Below, piece by piece: positions 4,336-56,392 of a stretch of DNA of 64,000 nt. The stretch is from a virus. Taxonomy: Duplodnaviria > Caudoviricetes. The DNA is taken from the IMG/VR virus record IMGVR_UViG_3300020045_004648, positions 20,369 through 84,368 of that record; one strand, 5' to 3'. Each line of letters begins with the position of its first letter. Position 1 is the first letter of the stretch. The translations under genes were made by a program, and so were the position numbers. The notes beneath the pieces are model-generated. The model ran no database searches and was not told the DNA's origin. It saw nothing but the letters and a program-made list of their open reading frames with translations.

Positions 4336-4893
4336 ATGAAAGTACATATTGGAGATTACGTGCCGTGGTACGGTCCCTACCAAATTGCAAAATTGATTCT
4401 GTTTTGGAAAGATGAAGAGAAAGATGAAAGCGTGCATCAATTTGGTAAGTGGTTAGCAACTGATAAGAATGGTAACGAATCAGTGTTTGCTGAAGTATGT
4501 GAATGGTTGCATTCCAAAAAGAAGCGCAAGATCAAAGTTAGGATTGATGATTATGATTTATTTTCTATGGATAGCACTTTGTGCTATATCATTCATCCAA
4601 TGCTGATCAAACTCAAAGAAGCCAAAGCTGGAACACCAGCAGTAGACAAAGCAGATGTTCCTGAAGAACTACATAGCACTTATGGAACACTAGGAGATTT
4701 TACAGATACCTTCAGTGAAGAGGCTTGGTCGTGGGTACTAGATGAAATGACCTGGAGTTTTGATCCTGATTGGGAAGAAAAGTACGGGTTTGGTGCATCT
4801 GGTCATGACTTTGATAAGTACCAAGAGAATAACAAAAGGATGGAAAATGGGCATAGACTTTTTGGGTGTTACCTGTCTTCGATGTGGACATAG
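4336..4893 (+). CDS. Hypothetical phage protein
   Basis: 185-aa ORF with SD, in the array. Confidence 0.7.
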   Translation: MKVHIGDYVPWYGPYQIAKLILFWKDEEKDESVHQFGKWLATDKNGNESVFAEVCEWLHSKKKRKIKVRIDDYDLFSMDSTLCYIIHPMLIKLKEAKAGTPAVDKADVPEELHSTYGTLGDFTDTFSEEAWSWVLDEMTWSFDPDWEEKYGFGASGHDFDKYQENNKRMENGHRLFGCYLSSMWT

Positions 4894-11541: not shown

Positions 11542-13773
11542 ATGGACATGAATGAAACTGTAGATATTGTGCATGATGCAGAAGCCTCTGGGCTTTTGGA
11601 TGATAGTACAGTAGACTACACAGCAAGTCCTTGGAAACTCAAGGACTCTTTTAAGATGCACATCGTGTCTGTTCAAGAGTTTCCAAGTCAAGAGTTTATT
11701 GCATTTTACGATGGTCCTAAAATTATTCTAGACGGAAGAACTCACAGTCAAGAAATTGAAGGCGTGGAATACAGGCTGGAGGATTACGAGCCGTTGGAAT
11801 ACAAGCATTTTCCACTTGCAAAGTTTAAGGATTACATCAAGAAGCGAAAGATTAATAAAGCTATTGCACACAATGGCATCAACTATGACTTGCTTGCGTA
11901 TAAGGCTTACTTTGGTCTTGACTATTCCGTACGGGAAGAAGGCGATACGTGGGCAGGTAATATTGTGGAACACGTTGACACAATGATCCTTTCAAAAGTA
12001 CTTAATCCAGATCGTATCGGTGGGCATAGTCTTGAGAATGTAGCCAAGCAGGCAGGAGGTGTGCAGAAGAAAGAGTTTCGTTATGGAATGTCTAAAGACC
12101 TTCGGTTTAAGCACTTTGCTGCGGACATGTTGCATTACAATCTGTTTGATTTGAAGTCTAATAAGTCCGTCTATAGCTACTTGATGAAGGAAAAGGGTAA
12201 TCATGATTGGAGTAGTGCTATCACTACAGAGAAGTGCATTGCCGATATCATTACGCGACAAGCCCACCGGGGGTTTGCTTTTGATGCAGAACTTGCGGAA
12301 AAGAATGTTAAAGAACTTGATGTAATGATGCATGAGGCACGTATTAAGGTTGAACCTATTCTTCCACCTAAGACTGCTACCAAGGGGTTCATGAAGGACT
12401 TCACGCCTCCAAAGAATCAATACAAGAAGGATGGTTCTTTGTCACATCACATGGAGAACTTCATTGAGAAGTTGCAAGCTAAGAAGATTGAGCAAGATGG
12501 TAAGGTTATTGGTATTGAATTCCAAGGTAAGACTTATGAACTTCCATTAGAAGAAGGAAAAGCCTTAGTAACAGAAGTCCCTGCTACCTTAAATGATACT
12601 ACTCACATCAAAGAGTGGTTGGTTAGTCTAGGATGGTCGCCATCAGAGTACAAGGAAAAAGACCTAACCCTGAAGACTGGAACTAAGATTAAACTAACAC
12701 AAGAGGAGTATACCAAGACGGTAGATAAGTACGTAGAACAGACTTTGAACTCTAGCCTCATGGAAGATCGTTGTGAGTTCTTAGAATGTACCCCTCGTAC
12801 CCTAAAAAGTAAATTACTTTCTGTTAAGAATGGTAGGGGTATGAGGGTACGTACTAATCCTAGTTTTACTAAAGGCCAGGACAAGGAAATGTGTACGCAC
12901 CTTGAGGCACTTGGAGAGAAGTTCCCGTTTGCTACTGATATTGTGAAATACTTGACGTATAAGCATAGGCGTAATTCTATCCTTGGGGGTGGTGCTGATT
13001 GGGACGATGAGGAAGATGCTGAGAAGGGCTTTATATCTGCTGTAAGGGCAGACGGACGAATCCCAACTCCAGCGGATACTTGTGGATGTGCTACCTCACG
13101 CATGAAGCACAAATTAGTAGCAAACATTGCTCGTGTAACTTCCCTTTATGGGGAGCCTATGAGGGCTATGTTTATGGCTGATCCAGAAGATTGCTACCAG
13201 ATTGGTTACGATTTTGCTAGTCTTGAGGCTGTTATTGAAGCGCACTATTGTTTTAAGTATGAAAGTCCTAATGAAGAAGGCACTAGAGAGTATTGCACAT
13301 CTCTTCTACAAGAAAAGCCTAATGATGTTCATACTAAGATGAGCCAGAAGATTTCAGGGATCATTGGAAGTAAGTTTGAACGTGGCCCTGCAAAGAGCGT
13401 AAAATATGGTTGTACCTATGGGGCACAAGCAGCTAAGGTTGCTAAGACAATTGGTTCAGATTTGCAGGTAGGTCAGCAAGTCTTTGATGCCTTCTGGCAA
13501 GCTGCAGCACCACTAAAGAGACTAAAAGATGCCTTGCAAAAGCACTGGGAGAGTAACGATAAAAAGTACATCCTTACTATGGATAATAGAAAGGTTCCTA
13601 CTCGTGCTGCACATGCCATCTTAAATAGTTTATTTCAGTCTGCTGGTGTTATTTGTGCAAAGAAGACGATGATTATCTGGGAGCGGAAGATGCGAGAGCA
13701 TGGACTACTAGTAGACTTCTGGACGGAGGATTGGAAGAACAAGTTGTGGGCACAACAGATGATAGCCTACCAT
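11542..13773 (+). CDS. polA: DNA polymerase family A, exon 1
   Basis: Exo motifs DAEA, HNGINYD; motif A GYDFASLE; motif B RGPAKSVKYG; ends at ...MIAYH, the first half of motif C. Confidence 0.92.
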
Positions 13774-14036
13774 AAATAATTGTGGCTTTGTATCGTGAGG
13801 TACATCGAAAAATCTTTTTAATTGCTGGAAAACTAAGGGCGAAAGCCTATGTCAATCAGCAGGGAAGCCTAGAAATAGGAACCTTCAGAGACTATCCCGA
13901 GAGGGAGTAGGTTGCAAGTGCAATCGAAATGGAAGAGGTCTTACTAAGTAAGATCGTGAGATAGTCCGATCCTGCGGGAAACCGTAAGGCTGCAAGTAAA
14001 GTTGCGGGAGAGATTAACGAACTCTCTGAACTGTTG
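13774..14036 (+). mobile_element. Group I intron (IA2-like), 263 nt, no internal ORF
   Basis: 5' exon ends in U within P1 (CCAUAA/UUGUGG, U-G pair); P AATTGCTGGAAA, Q AATCAGCAGG, R TCAGAGACTA, S GAGATAGTCC; two extra P7 stems; P9 GAAA loop; terminal G; splicing restores YH-DE. Confidence 0.93.
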
Positions 14037-49387: not shown

Positions 49388-49561
49388 CTTTTCCTTCTTA
49401 TAAGGCGACGACTAGGTTTAGCCGTCTTTTATTATTAGCATTCTAGATAACAGATAAATCAATTATATCATACTTTTGTAATAATTACAAGTGAATTTTA
49501 CTTATGTATTATTGATCTATCTGTTTTGTTAGATAATTTCTAATGTTTGTGCTTGAGGGGA

Positions 49562-49900
49562 TTAGATATTTGAGCCATCTACCGGAACCGGCCCAGGAAT
49601 CACACCTGCACAAAACGCCTCACACTCCGCCAGCGTAGGCGGCACCAAATCAGCCCACCTCTTGGCATAATCCTTAGCGCATTCGGTATGCAGAACTTCG
49701 GGGTGCATCAGCATATAACCGGCTTTAGCTGCAAAATCAGAGGTACACGGAGTTGTTGTGCTGATCGTGGTTTCGTTCAGATCGGGGCAGAACGACTTGT
49801 CGCCGCCAGTATCGGGATCAAGTGCACGCCCAATCTTGGCCGCGATCTCTGCGAGGGTGGCGGGTAGGCGGATCGTGATGGTTGCGTCGTAAGGTCTCAC
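49562..49900 (-). CDS. Hypothetical protein in the inserted cassette
   Basis: GTGA overlap with the upstream gene; GC-richer codons. Confidence 0.7.
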   Translation of the reverse strand: MRPYDATITIRLPATLAEIAAKIGRALDPDTGGDKSFCPDLNETTISTTTPCTSDFAAKAGYMLMHPEVLHTECAKDYAKRWADLVPPTLAECEAFCAGVIPGPVPVDGSNI

Positions 49901-50693: not shown

Positions 50694-51200
50694 TTACGCC
50701 TTGGAGCCAACAACGTCGTAGGTATCGACGCCGGTCTGCGTTAAAGCTGCCCATGGGTTTGTTGCTCCAGTAGTGCGGACATCTGTCACTGTAGCTGACC
50801 CTGTGAATGTGATAACGCCCTTGAATGCAACGCCAAATCCAACCGGCAGGCCTGTGTTTACGGTTGCGACCTGAGCCGATGCACACACCAGAGTCTGCCC
50901 GTTGTCTGCGTCAGTCAGGGCGCGGAACGTAAATGCATACGGGCTGGCCGTGCCGCCTACCTGTACGCCGCCCGCCAAAATTCCAACCCCCCCGGTGACA
51001 GGATTAGTTCTTGCAGTAACAAACAAATCCCCTGTAGTTGCAGGAGCAAGATTAATCATCATCTCACCAGCAGCATTAACTGGGTTATACCCTTTAGGTA
51101 ACGTACCCGCTACTCCCCTACCACCTGTACCTAACCGTGCTACAACCTCTCCTTCTGTATTAACAGGTAGACCTTGAATTTCTGTAATATTATCTGGCAT
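50694..51200 (-). CDS. Chimeric protein: 67-aa conserved N-domain fused to a cassette-derived C-domain
   Basis: N-terminus clearly similar to 55958..56176; junction at TNP. Confidence 0.8.
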   Translation of the reverse strand: MPDNITEIQGLPVNTEGEVVARLGTGGRGVAGTLPKGYNPVNAAGEMMINLAPATTGDLFVTARTNPVTGGVGILAGGVQVGGTASPYAFTFRALTDADNGQTLVCASAQVATVNTGLPVGFGVAFKGVITFTGSATVTDVRTTGATNPWAALTQTGVDTYDVVGSKA

Positions 51201-51235
51201 TTGATTTCCTTAGTTTTTGTTTTACACGTTTTCGT

Positions 51236-53414: not shown

Positions 53415-54920
53415 TTATTTAATATTGAATGACGGTAACGTAAAAGAAGTTCTACCTTGGCCGTATGAATTGTGAAAAGATGGTAATGATTGACCAGTCA
53501 TTGAAAGATTAGGAAGTGTCATTAGTGGAATCTCTTTAATCTGATTTAGAACTAAAATAGCATCAGATAAAGTATCACAAATGTCATCGTGAAACCCGTT
53601 TTTAGCCCCCGTAAAGACTTCAAGTTCTTTAAAGCATTCTTCTAACCACTCTGCTTTTACGAACCTAACTCGATGGGCTTCAGCCAGAGATGAAAAAGGA
53701 AGAAAACGAGTTAACTTAGATTTCTGTGTTTTCACTAACTTAACATAAAATCCTAGTTCAGCAAGTCTTGCTTTCATGGAATTTGCATAAGCGATTCCTG
53801 CTGCACCTGGGTCAACAGCAAGTACAATTGTGACTCCAACACCGTCTTCTTTAGCAGTGTTGATAATCAACTCTTCAACTTTATGTGGTCTATCTCTAAG
53901 GCTTACAATATCTTCTACCGTGTAGAAACTACTTGCATCTTTACTAACGAGGCTTCCCCTAGTCCAATCAGGATCAGGCTGGGCAGTGCTGGGCAAGGAG
54001 GAACTTTGATCCCATACACGAACCCTTTTTCGTAGAGTGTCAGGGGGGTACAACAAAATATCACACCAATCTCTCTTAAAATACCCAGACTCTTCTTCTT
54101 TTGCCACCCATGATCCATCCAACATAATCCTACGGCGAATTGTTGGGTAACCTTGTAAGTTAGAAAGATACTCTGGGTTTGCTCTAAGTAGTGGTAGGTT
54201 ATCTGTTACGTGCGCACGGATAGACCTGAAGGAACGTGGAATAATCTTGTGTCCACCCGCCATTGGGATTGTATCACAGTATATCAGTGCGTCTTCTTTA
54301 GTTGCAAACCAAAGTGGTTTATCATTTTGTATTACAAACCATCTTTCAATATTTGATTTTTCTTTAAGAGGAATTCCATATTCATCAAGATAGAAGTCTT
54401 TAATCCAATGATAAATACCATGATCAAATTTTGGATTTGTAGACCAAAACATTTGAGGAACATACTTCGTTTTTGCACTACGTAATCGCCCAAGAAGTGG
54501 TAAAATGTAAGTCTCAAACGGGAAGGTGGTGGCCTCATCAAAGAAAATGGCTGAGTATTGGGCTCCAAGTGCTTTGTCTACATCAGATGGGTGCTGTAGT
54601 GATTTGAACTTCAGGTAGGAGTTTGTAGAAGGAACATATATTTCCAACTCGTTTGATCTAACCTTACAGTCTGGGAACATCTTACGGAAAATAGGTACGG
54701 CTTCTTGCCAAATACCCCCCGCATCTTTCATTTCGCCCATTGTTCTACGAAAACAGACTATGGTAGAATTTTGCATTGCTGCAAATTTAACCATGTTAAG
54801 CACAACAGCAAATGTCTTACCTGCACCTTGGGCTCCCGCATAGAGGGTGATAGTCGAGGTTGATGCCAAGAACTGCTCTTGTGGTACACTCGCTGGGGCA
54901 AGAATCATTTGTTCATCCAT
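53415..54920 (-). CDS. terL: Terminase large subunit
   Basis: GAQGAGKT Walker A, IFFDEAT Walker B, nuclease VWD...PDWT...HDDICD. Confidence 0.92.
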   Translation of the reverse strand: MDEQMILAPASVPQEQFLASTSTITLYAGAQGAGKTFAVVLNMVKFAAMQNSTIVCFRRTMGEMKDAGGIWQEAVPIFRKMFPDCKVRSNELEIYVPSTNSYLKFKSLQHPSDVDKALGAQYSAIFFDEATTFPFETYILPLLGRLRSAKTKYVPQMFWSTNPKFDHGIYHWIKDFYLDEYGIPLKEKSNIERWFVIQNDKPLWFATKEDALIYCDTIPMAGGHKIIPRSFRSIRAHVTDNLPLLRANPEYLSNLQGYPTIRRRIMLDGSWVAKEEESGYFKRDWCDILLYPPDTLRKRVRVWDQSSSLPSTAQPDPDWTRGSLVSKDASSFYTVEDIVSLRDRPHKVEELIINTAKEDGVGVTIVLAVDPGAAGIAYANSMKARLAELGFYVKLVKTQKSKLTRFLPFSSLAEAHRVRFVKAEWLEECFKELEVFTGAKNGFHDDICDTLSDAILVLNQIKEIPLMTLPNLSMTGQSLPSFHNSYGQGRTSFTLPSFNIK

Positions 54921-54928
54921 GCTGTCCT

Positions 54929-55318
54929 TTATTGGTTTTCTTCGTTATTTATAATCTTTAAGCTGAAAGTGGGTCTATTACTGGGCTGCACGTCTTCTAC
55001 CTTAGTTTCGCTTTCTGGTACTTCCCCATCCCCCGAAGGCGCATAGAGCTTATCCATACACAGCGTGAAATACTTCAAATAAATCTCAGCAGCCTTCAAC
55101 TTCGCAGCTTCACTTGCCTTTTCATTATTCAAAATCTTCAATGCTTCTTTCAGTGCAACTTGTGCGCCTGGTTTGAGCTTTCTCGCAAGGGTAAGCATCT
55201 CTTTATCTTTAGCTTCCCTTCGGGTGAGCGTTTTCTCGTCTTTCTTTAGAGGCCTCCCACGGGAATTTATCGCAGGATCGACCTTTCCACCATTGTCTTT
55301 TCGTGCTTTAAACACCAT
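54929..55318 (-). CDS. terS: Terminase small subunit (putative)
   Basis: INSRGRP motif; directly upstream of terL. Confidence 0.6.
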   Translation of the reverse strand: MVFKARKDNGGKVDPAINSRGRPLKKDEKTLTRREAKDKEMLTLARKLKPGAQVALKEALKILNNEKASEAAKLKAAEIYLKYFTLCMDKLYAPSGDGEVPESETKVEDVQPSNRPTFSLKIINNEENQ

Positions 55319-55338
55319 ATGTATTCTCCAAATACTAA

Positions 55339-55860
55339 AGCCCGAATTCTCGGGCTGAATGAAATCTAGGCTTGTCTTTCCAAGCTGCCATCTGTTTACA
55401 TCCGGTTTTAATCGTATGTCTTAACCTTTGCAGGTCATATGCGTGTAGCACTATGGGGCGCACAACAGAAACCCTCGACTGTGCTTGGTATTTACCAAGG
55501 CTGAATTAAATAGATACTAGTCAGACTCCACATTGAGCGTGTTCGCTTATAGAGTAAACTATATTGACGTGCTAGCCTAGTATCTAGAATATGTCTGCTT
55601 TTATAGTTGCTTAACAGCCCAACTTGTCATGACGCCTGCAATACTTTGGCGAGTATCGGCTGGAACCATAACGGCACCTAAGGTAGTTAGGATTGGGAGT
55701 TCACTTCACGACATTTCGACTATGATTGTCTGGTGTGGTACTTAGTGAACATAGAAGATGTAAGGCAGGCTGCACACATTATCATTAAGTTGCGCTTCGA
55801 TATTTAACGTGACCTTAGGTCATTCCGCAACGCCCTTTACCCGCACAGTTTCTGGCCTTA
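55339..55860 (-). ncRNA. Candidate large multi-helix non-coding RNA (about 520 nt)
   Basis: No ORF of 60 aa or more within 55359-55957; about ten hairpin and long-range helices; directly downstream of a tRNA-like element; strand inferred from context. Confidence 0.7.
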
Positions 55861-55866
55861 CAAAAC

Positions 55867-55940
55867 TGGATGCAGGTAGTGGTAACGCTTCACTCTCAGT
55901 AAGGCTTATGAGGCCTTCTGGGTCACTTGACCTACCTGCT
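55867..55940 (-). tRNA. Degenerate tRNA-like RNA, anticodon CAU
   Basis: GCAGGT/ACCTGC acceptor with 1:72 mismatch, AAGGC-CTCATAA-GCCTT anticodon arm, 3' CCA; 4-nt D-loop and non-canonical T-loop. Confidence 0.6.
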
Positions 55941-55957
55941 GTGATTTAGAAAGATAT

Positions 55958-56176
55958 CTAATGTTTGTGCTTGAGAGGATTAGTTTTAGCCGTTACAAAA
56001 GACTCCCCTGCTACCGCAGGGGCCAAGTTAACAACCATCTCACCTTGAAGATTAACCGGGTTGTAATCCCTTGGCAATGTACCTGTGATTGTCCTACCAC
56101 CTGTACCCATCCTTGCTACAACTTCCCCTTCAAGATTAATTGGAAGCCCATATTGTTCTACTACGTTATCAGTCAT
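55958..56176 (-). CDS. 72-aa protein, uninterrupted paralog of the 50694..51200 N-domain
   Basis: GLP.N.EGEVVAR.GTGGR...GTLP..YNPVN..GEM..NLAPA..G..FVTA.TNP shared. Confidence 0.8.
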   Translation of the reverse strand: MTDNVVEQYGLPINLEGEVVARMGTGGRTITGTLPRDYNPVNLQGEMVVNLAPAVAGESFVTAKTNPLKHKH

Positions 56177-56215
56177 TTAATTCCCTTAGTTGTGCCGTGT
56201 TAAAATTTTAATTAT

Positions 56216-56392
56216 TCAATCATAAAACACAGGCTTAGTAGCACCTGTTGGATTAAGCAAATGATCTACTTCTAATGTATCTTCATCATCAAACATTGGA
56301 ACTGTACTACTATAAGCGCACAAATCACAATGATCTGTATCGTTATAAGGAGACAACCTATAGTAGTTCTGACAAGTAAGGCAAGTAGGCAT
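56216..56392 (-). CDS. 58-aa Zn-finger-like protein
   Basis: Below the track cut-off; MPTCLTC...HCDLC. Confidence 0.55.
   Translation of the reverse strand: MPTCLTCQNYYRLSPYNDTDHCDLCAYSSTVPMFDDEDTLEVDHLLNPTGATKPVFYD

Follow-up and report, generated by a model that had tools for sequence, protein, structure and literature searches.

Phage-associated, long non-coding RNAs that often lie next to tRNA genes include GOLLD and ROOL, which we take to be Rfam families RF01998 and RF03087, respectively. In T4, the tRNA region carries the homing endonuclease SegB. Phage PAK_P3 produces two sRNAs that are abundant late and lie within or beside its tRNA region (PMC4933390), and T4 makes the RNAs of bands C and D, as cited in the same paper (PMC4933390), while many candidate phage RNAs have been reported upstream of terminase genes (PMC10690425). 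For the locus considered here, a sequence-only reading had proposed that positions 55339-55860 form one highly paired RNA of ~520 nt, either GOLLD- or ROOL-like or new, located between a tRNA-like gene and the terminase genes. Our results point, on balance, to a chain of small modules with separate histories rather than one large fold, and we favor a model whereby the stretch is the mosaic non-coding trailer of a decayed tRNA cassette, situated in a hypervariable slot of a freshwater relative of Curvibacter phage P26059A.

The window, by which we mean the whole stretch of DNA analyzed, makes up the final 64 kb of an IMG/VR phage record of 84.4 kb that carries direct terminal repeats. All genes around the gap are on the minus strand and follow the order PhoH, HNH endonuclease, ClpP-like protease, second HNH, a 58-aa ORF (56216-56392), a 72-aa ORF (55958-56176), the gap, a 129-aa ORF (54929-55318), a T4-type TerL (53415-54920) and a Mu-type portal. 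The 129-aa ORF lies directly upstream of TerL and is a putative terS, assigned as small terminase by position only; it has no match in Pfam or PHROG, adjoins TerL in relatives too and has 351 homologues in public metagenomes. By TerL, the nearest cultured phages are P26059A (56% identical) and Limnohabitans phage DC31 (44%), with Pseudomonas myoviruses of the PAK_P1/PAK_P3 type further off (38%). In agreement with the claim that so long a non-coding gap is unusual, 55319-55957 is the largest internal ORF-free interval of the window, with 639 nt (599 nt at a 50-aa ORF cut-off), the next-largest being 200-300 nt or less. The proposed position was also borne out: a CAU cloverleaf-like element (55866-55940, minus strand) lies on one side and the putative terS and TerL lie on the other. 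Coding within the gap was rejected on the grounds that no ORF exceeds 46 aa, that the listed substitutions have no 3-base periodicity and that the tblastx match is only to the duplicated 72-aa gene; a 38-aa plus-strand ORF across 55629-55745 was likewise rejected, being cut to 17 aa by an indel in the relative L002 and lacking a Shine-Dalgarno (SD) sequence. As to the duplication itself, the 72-aa ORF with its 3′ tail (55927-56190) is a paralogue, with 67% amino acid identity, of the N-terminus of a 168-aa ORF (50694-51200), and 55927-56190 matches 50996-51215 joined to 49512-49565, the latter just past a 112-aa ORF at 49562; these two parts lie ~1.4 kb apart in the other copy. The 72-aa ORF also contains a strong terminator-like hairpin (56005-56022).

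All six long-range arm pairs and all five hairpins listed in the sequence-only reading are complementary where it placed them, and the inverted repeat 55511-20/55577-86 is a perfect 10 bp. The description as highly paired did not hold: the minimum free energy (MFE) of 55339-55860 is no better than that of dinucleotide shuffles on either strand (plus strand, z = -0.29, 21 of 60 shuffles folding as well; minus strand, z = -1.57, 4 of 60), and this comparison had been named in the reading itself as one that could refute it. For the 639-nt gap, z was -2.2 and -1.0, from 20 shuffles only, and the sub-blocks gave -1.04, -0.02 and -0.80 (200 shuffles), with -1.04 for 55623-55866 and -0.80 for 55357-55625, both on the minus strand. 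The relevant strand is the minus one, on which the flanking genes, the terminator and relatives' tRNAs also lie. A cmscan of 55100-56200 with Rfam 15 returned no match at the gathering threshold nor at E <= 10 with permissive filters; the models for GOLLD, ROOL, tRNA, tmRNA, RNase P and introns thus give nothing here, and GOLLD or ROOL membership is left without support. Across the window, Rfam 15 has a single match at the gathering level, a group I intron (13763-13988; RF00028, 77.5 bits) at the end of a 745-aa ORF (11542-13779).

Comparison with relatives argues equally against a single conserved RNA. Searches with TerL and terS brought 23 IMG/VR loci and 14 metagenome loci (numbered with L below), and we define the slot as the interval from the conserved 58-aa gene to the putative terS. 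The slot has 897 nt in the window, 210 nt and no tRNA in L002, L006, L026 and L027, 573 nt and four tRNAs in L003, about 1.3 kb with an HNH_3-AP2 endonuclease in L004, L005, L007 and L029 (1320 nt and a tRNA-Met in the first three), and 1.9 kb with five or six tRNAs in L009 and L010. By blastn, the fetched relatives share with the window only 55626-55686 (89% identity) and the terminator/RBS region, so the 520-nt stretch has not been conserved as a unit; relatives whose TerL is 84-93% identical have in common only 62 nt and the terminator hairpin, and the closest complete relative (TerL 93% identical) has 210 nt here, sharing the 62-nt piece and the terminator hairpin. The HNH_3-AP2 ORFs in the slots of L004 (1188-1979) and L029 (1398-2156) are of the homing-endonuclease type and differ from each other, and that of L004 adjoins the tRNA-Met. 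The presence of HNH genes in and around the slot fits endonuclease-driven reshuffling of the tRNA region. TerL is itself interrupted in several relatives (L011, L014, L015, L021, L023, L026 and L036, with matches in two to three pieces); one interruption in L023 is a group I intron (Rfam, 77.6 bits, 4597-4805), and the TerL of the window is uninterrupted.

On the minus strand, the first module is the tRNA-like element at 55866-55940, which is, as far as the letters can be read, a decayed or chimeric tRNA-Met(CAU) gene. It has an intact anticodon arm with the loop CUCAUAA, an encoded U-CCA end and a 6-bp acceptor stem with a 1:72 mismatch, together with a D loop of 4 nt and no T loop. ARAGORN made no tRNA call here at default or relaxed thresholds, and Rfam tRNA (RF00005) gave no match at E <= 10; the calls made under relaxed settings were rejected as they were only implausible, intron-containing ones. 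The 5′ acceptor strand of the remnant lies in the sequence duplicated from 49512-49565, and in metagenomic relatives (Logan contigs) identity with the window stops at 55875/55876 and is followed by a tRNA T-arm (GGTTCAAATCC...).

The adjoining block 55623-55876 is 94-97% identical in contigs of other metagenomes from three studies (runs X1/X2, X5 and X6; wastewater, aquatic and groundwater sources). The parts of terS found in runs X2, X5 and X6 have 88-93% identity, those of X5 and X6 being on separate short contigs, and in run X6 55690-55876 is present with a different downstream part. This identity could reflect purifying selection on a functional RNA of ~250 nt or recent lateral spread, and the block may by itself constitute a functional RNA. 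Its 5′ part, block D1 (55761-55860, minus strand), has predicted nested helices (55852-60 with 55761-68 and 55826-31 with 55789-94, enclosing hairpin 55810-22) of verified complementarity; D1 is likewise 94-97% identical in contigs of runs X1, X2, X5 and X6, and the few variants listed for it (position 55816; indels at 55781-86 and at 55815-16) are all in loops. No match to 55200-56100 was found by blastn in distant mode among 50,697 phage records, an exact-pattern scan of IMG/VR for two words of block D found none, and an 18-mer scan of genome contigs gave chance matches only, in GC-rich bacteria. None of the sequencing runs listed as holding the sequence is RNA, each holding a small share; the wastewater runs labeled RNA-Seq are probably DNA. 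One X1 contig joining 55320 to 56265, with 944 nt skipped, was left out as it has only 30 letters on one side.

Block D2 (55699-55750, minus strand) is a hairpin with a conserved apical region of ~32 nt, CCACACCAGRCAAUCANAGYCGAAAUGUCGUG, on a variable but compensated stem. It has an 85% match (E 1e-7) in a bacterial genome of the same family as a Variovorax sp. genome, and of the 401 genomes in the Variovorax-containing family, 3 carry the motif, which is absent from the reversed control. In the four sequences available, 91% of cells pair, a share that drops to 28-45% when partners are slid, and both sides have changed in 11 pairs. The motif has no Rfam match. The bacterial copies (L068:1483-1546; L069:1408-1471, minus strand; L070:1491-1546, minus strand) have different, fully compensated stems followed by U-runs, and their neighborhoods vary and are defense-like, with a MuF_C-domain gene, a ResIII helicase and an HATPase_c_4 protein.

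Toward terS, the block is followed by an indel cassette (55506-55623, minus strand), which holds the perfect 10-bp inverted repeat together with one arm of 55603-11/55447-54. In a 6-kb X2 contig, and likewise in X1, the cassette is replaced by 82 other letters. The long-range pairs of the sequence-only reading lack comparative support. A sigma-70-like match at 55586-55558 is weak (9 of 12) and is seen as often in shuffles. The variable spacer that comes next (55357-55505, minus strand) has local hairpins at 55484-99 and 55370-85 and no ORF above 45 aa; measured over 55337-55506, its identity in the X2 contig (record 9) is 86%, with 24 differences among 170 nt, and the 17 listed differences have no 3-base periodicity.

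The stretch ends in a putative intrinsic terminator (55333-55356, minus strand; terminator scan) with the form AGCCCG-loop-CGGGCU followed by UUUAGUAUUU. Its hairpin (55356-55339) has a 7-bp stem with five GC pairs and a TTAGTATTT tail and, as a GC-rich hairpin plus U-run that is conserved in place, qualifies as a predicted Rho-independent terminator. It lies 20 nt before the start codon of terS (55316-55318), with the SD sequence GGAG at 55326-55329, both on the minus strand. All near relatives have a hairpin and U-run in the same place, and distant relatives have other stems that still pair (GGCCCC/GGGGCU in L035, GCUCC/GGAGC in L036 and GCCCC/GGGGC in L038).

The 62-nt piece is what remains of a larger RNA. 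In most relatives, a non-coding element of ~190 nt lies immediately after the last tRNA and before the hairpin, U-run and terS, and RNAalifold predicts seven helices for it. We defined this family by the alignments A4 and A7 and the covariance models R1 and R2. Of its cells, 92% pair compared with 33-41% when slid, and 18 of 31 pairs change on both sides, a result that none of 500 shuffles reached; with 16 sequences, 25 of 34 pairs do so. R1 found members outside its training set (L009, L010, L012/L013, L017, L023 and phage P26059A), the copy in L023 beginning at the last base of tRNA-Thr, and R2 found phage DC31 with 118 bits, where the element lies directly after tRNA-Tyr and 12 nt before a terS-like gene. 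R2 had no match in Pseudomonas phages G1 (Nankokuvirus) or NoPa, and the family has no match in Rfam 15. Copies are found at L003:3349-3542, L004:2199-2387 and L023:2259-2451, and the cultured phages P26059A (L063:3855-4053, that is, 83354-83552 of the record) and DC31 (L064:2942-3134) have the RNA intact. Altogether, the RNA has seven to eight helices and the conserved loops CGCCA, ACGAAA and ...GUAA, the eighth being a hairpin with an invariant CGCCA loop that the automatic alignment had missed. In 13 sequences, including the window, this hairpin is 89% paired compared with 29% when slid, and all eight of its eight pairs change on both sides; the hairpin at 55641-56 with the loop GCCA that the earlier reading had picked out is one of the RNA hairpins maintained by compensatory changes. 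Pairing is possible between the family's CGCCA loop and the GGYG conserved within the motif CAGGYGUC; RNAalifold proposed these pairs, which have one-sided changes only, and this candidate pseudoknot would be the family counterpart of the GCCA-loop pseudoknot suggested for the window. For the window itself, an H-type pseudoknot in which the CGCCA loop would pair with the GGCG 3 nt downstream was discarded for presumed steric reasons.

In the window, the family is represented by a vestige (55626-55691, minus strand) that is 89% identical to L002, L006, L026 and L027. On this strand it retains the 5′ motif CUACCUUAGG (55677-55686; CUACCUURGG in the family), the hairpin with the invariant CGCCA loop (55637-55660), which fits the covarying 8-bp hairpin, and the motif CAGGCGUC (55631-55638), as well as the position before the terminator and terS; the seven-helix form of ~190 nt is absent, and all modeled helices are deleted in its R1 and R2 alignments. 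The window scores 4.4 bits with R1 and 8.3 bits with R2 (E 0.02 in 1.1 kb, filters off) at 55585-55691, compared with about 62-204 bits in intact members and 16-20 bits in the nearest clade (L002 type). The values of 4-8 and 16-20 bits indicate that the family RNA is degenerating in the lineage of the window.

The locus thus has a modular make-up, has lost the family RNA and has conserved three hairpins at the RNA level (55637-55660, 55699-55750 and 55339-55356), the three with comparative support; because these are maintained, the region is not inert. That the slot varies in content, that homing endonucleases lie in and around it, that its tRNA is broken and its family RNA degenerate, that its modules are differently combined in metagenomic contigs, and that neither folding energies nor Rfam give a signal all support the mosaic trailer that we consider the probable explanation. 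The sequence-only proposal stands in so far as this is a non-coding RNA locus with a tRNA-type neighbor and the packaging genes just downstream, parts of it being RNA hairpins that compensatory changes have maintained, and the single large RNA of the GOLLD or ROOL type falls. In our model, the region would be transcribed on the minus strand along with the upstream genes, the terminator hairpin would stop or pause transcription, with read-through feeding terS and TerL, and the homing endonucleases that occupy the slot in relatives would drive its reshuffling.

A functional modular RNA of ~250-530 nt is a possibility that we regard as tentative. Such an RNA would run from the CCA end of the pseudo-tRNA (~55866) to the terminator (~55335), or at least over 55623-55866, would be released by means of the acceptor/CCA stem and would have a role in trans, either as a late sRNA or as a sponge or decoy of host factors targeting tRNA or other RNA. 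In its favor, the ends are defined by a tRNA-like 5′ boundary common to relatives and by the conserved terminator, the block 55623-55876 is no less conserved than terS in contigs of three studies, the D2 and CGCCA-loop hairpins covary, and the late sRNAs of PAK_P3 and the band C and D RNAs of T4 provide precedents (PMC4933390). However, the folding energy does not exceed that of shuffles, the stretch is not conserved as a unit, with the closest complete genomes lacking blocks D and E altogether, and the core family RNA is only a vestige. Moreover, the pseudo-tRNA has no T arm, which RNase P and RNase Z normally use.

Going further, and with rather little confidence, we speculate that, in phages related to P26059A and DC31, the slot before terS serves as a cassette site where structured RNAs released from tRNA precursors are exchanged, and that these RNAs take part in an arms race as decoys against host defenses targeting tRNA or RNA, or else as antitermination elements of the packaging operon. 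The ~190-nt RNA would then be a new class, possibly with a CGCCA-GGYG pseudoknot, and the window would carry a re-assorted RNA of ~250 nt, with its D2 hairpin common to bacteria of the Variovorax-containing family.

It is unlikely that the stretch is a cis-acting leader that sets the expression of terS and TerL, whether by hairpins modulating terminator read-through in the manner of put-like processive antitermination or by holding late promoter or processing sites. The conserved terminator 20 nt before the terS start leaves no room for a promoter after it, suggesting that terS is expressed by read-through, all relatives have a structured RNA directly upstream of the terminator, and RNA candidates before terminase genes are in line with the literature (PMC10690425). 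Against such a role, the distance from the conserved RNA to the terminator varies between 0 and about 230 nt owing to inserted modules, unlike the fixed coupling of aptamer and expression platform in a riboswitch or attenuator; the conserved RNA is vestigial in the window, yet terS and TerL are intact; and the promoter-like match is weak and occurs as often in shuffles.

A DNA-level pac or cos site for the terminase, with the inverted repeats as protein-binding sites, is very improbable. Sites of the pac type often lie in or near terS in headful packaging, the stretch adjoins terS, and a Mu-type portal with a T4-type TerL fits this mode of packaging; but the stretch is hypervariable among phages with 74-89% identical terS and 57-93% identical TerL, and the conserved pieces keep their pairing by compensatory changes, which argues for RNA rather than a fixed DNA word. 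Membership in GOLLD or ROOL, to which context alone points (a phage, a tRNA-type neighbor and a long non-coding gap), has next to no probability and, within the reach of sequence and structure models, stands refuted, the stretch having neither a model match, nor conservation as a unit, nor a folding signal.

Removing this tempting false lead cautions that a long phage gap described as highly paired can be debris and cassettes in a hot spot for tRNAs and homing endonucleases. Two by-products emerged, namely a strongly covarying RNA family of ~190 nt, not in Rfam 15, between the tRNA array and the packaging genes, and a hairpin motif that has a 32-nt conserved apical part and is common to the phage and three bacterial genomes. 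As the former is found in two cultured freshwater phages, P26059A and DC31, its function is testable by deletion.

Placed beside known systems, the window shares with GOLLD and ROOL the association with phages, tRNA-type surroundings and non-coding length, and differs in consisting of separately inherited pieces in place of a multi-domain conserved fold kept as one unit of >500 nt across relatives. Compared with the terS-upstream RNA family, it has the same slot and strand, CUACCUUAGG, the CGCCA-loop hairpin, CAGGCGUC and the terminator, and it lacks five helices, having instead ~440 nt of unrelated modules (D1, D2 and E). As in T4 with bands C and D and in PAK_P3 with sRNA1 and sRNA2, non-coding RNAs would lie in or beside a phage tRNA cluster; these RNAs differ from ours in that no sequence or structure homology was found, R2 being without a match in G1, and in their size (~100-140 nt). 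The PAK_P3 relative G1 (Nankokuvirus) shows the same order, with a tRNA cluster upstream of the terminase genes: in Pseudomonas phage vB_PaeM_G1, an unannotated gap of 880 nt upstream of the terminase genes (L066:1714-2597) holds three tRNAs (Asn, Tyr and Gln) with spacers of ~200 nt, in synteny with the slot of the window, and probably corresponds to where the published PAK_P3 sRNAs lie. Finally, the window's slot differs from the tRNA region that hosts SegB in being without an endonuclease gene today, and it resembles SegB and other free-standing HNH systems in that HNH_3-AP2 genes occupy the same tRNA slot in L004 and L029 and that two HNH genes flank the slot in the window itself.
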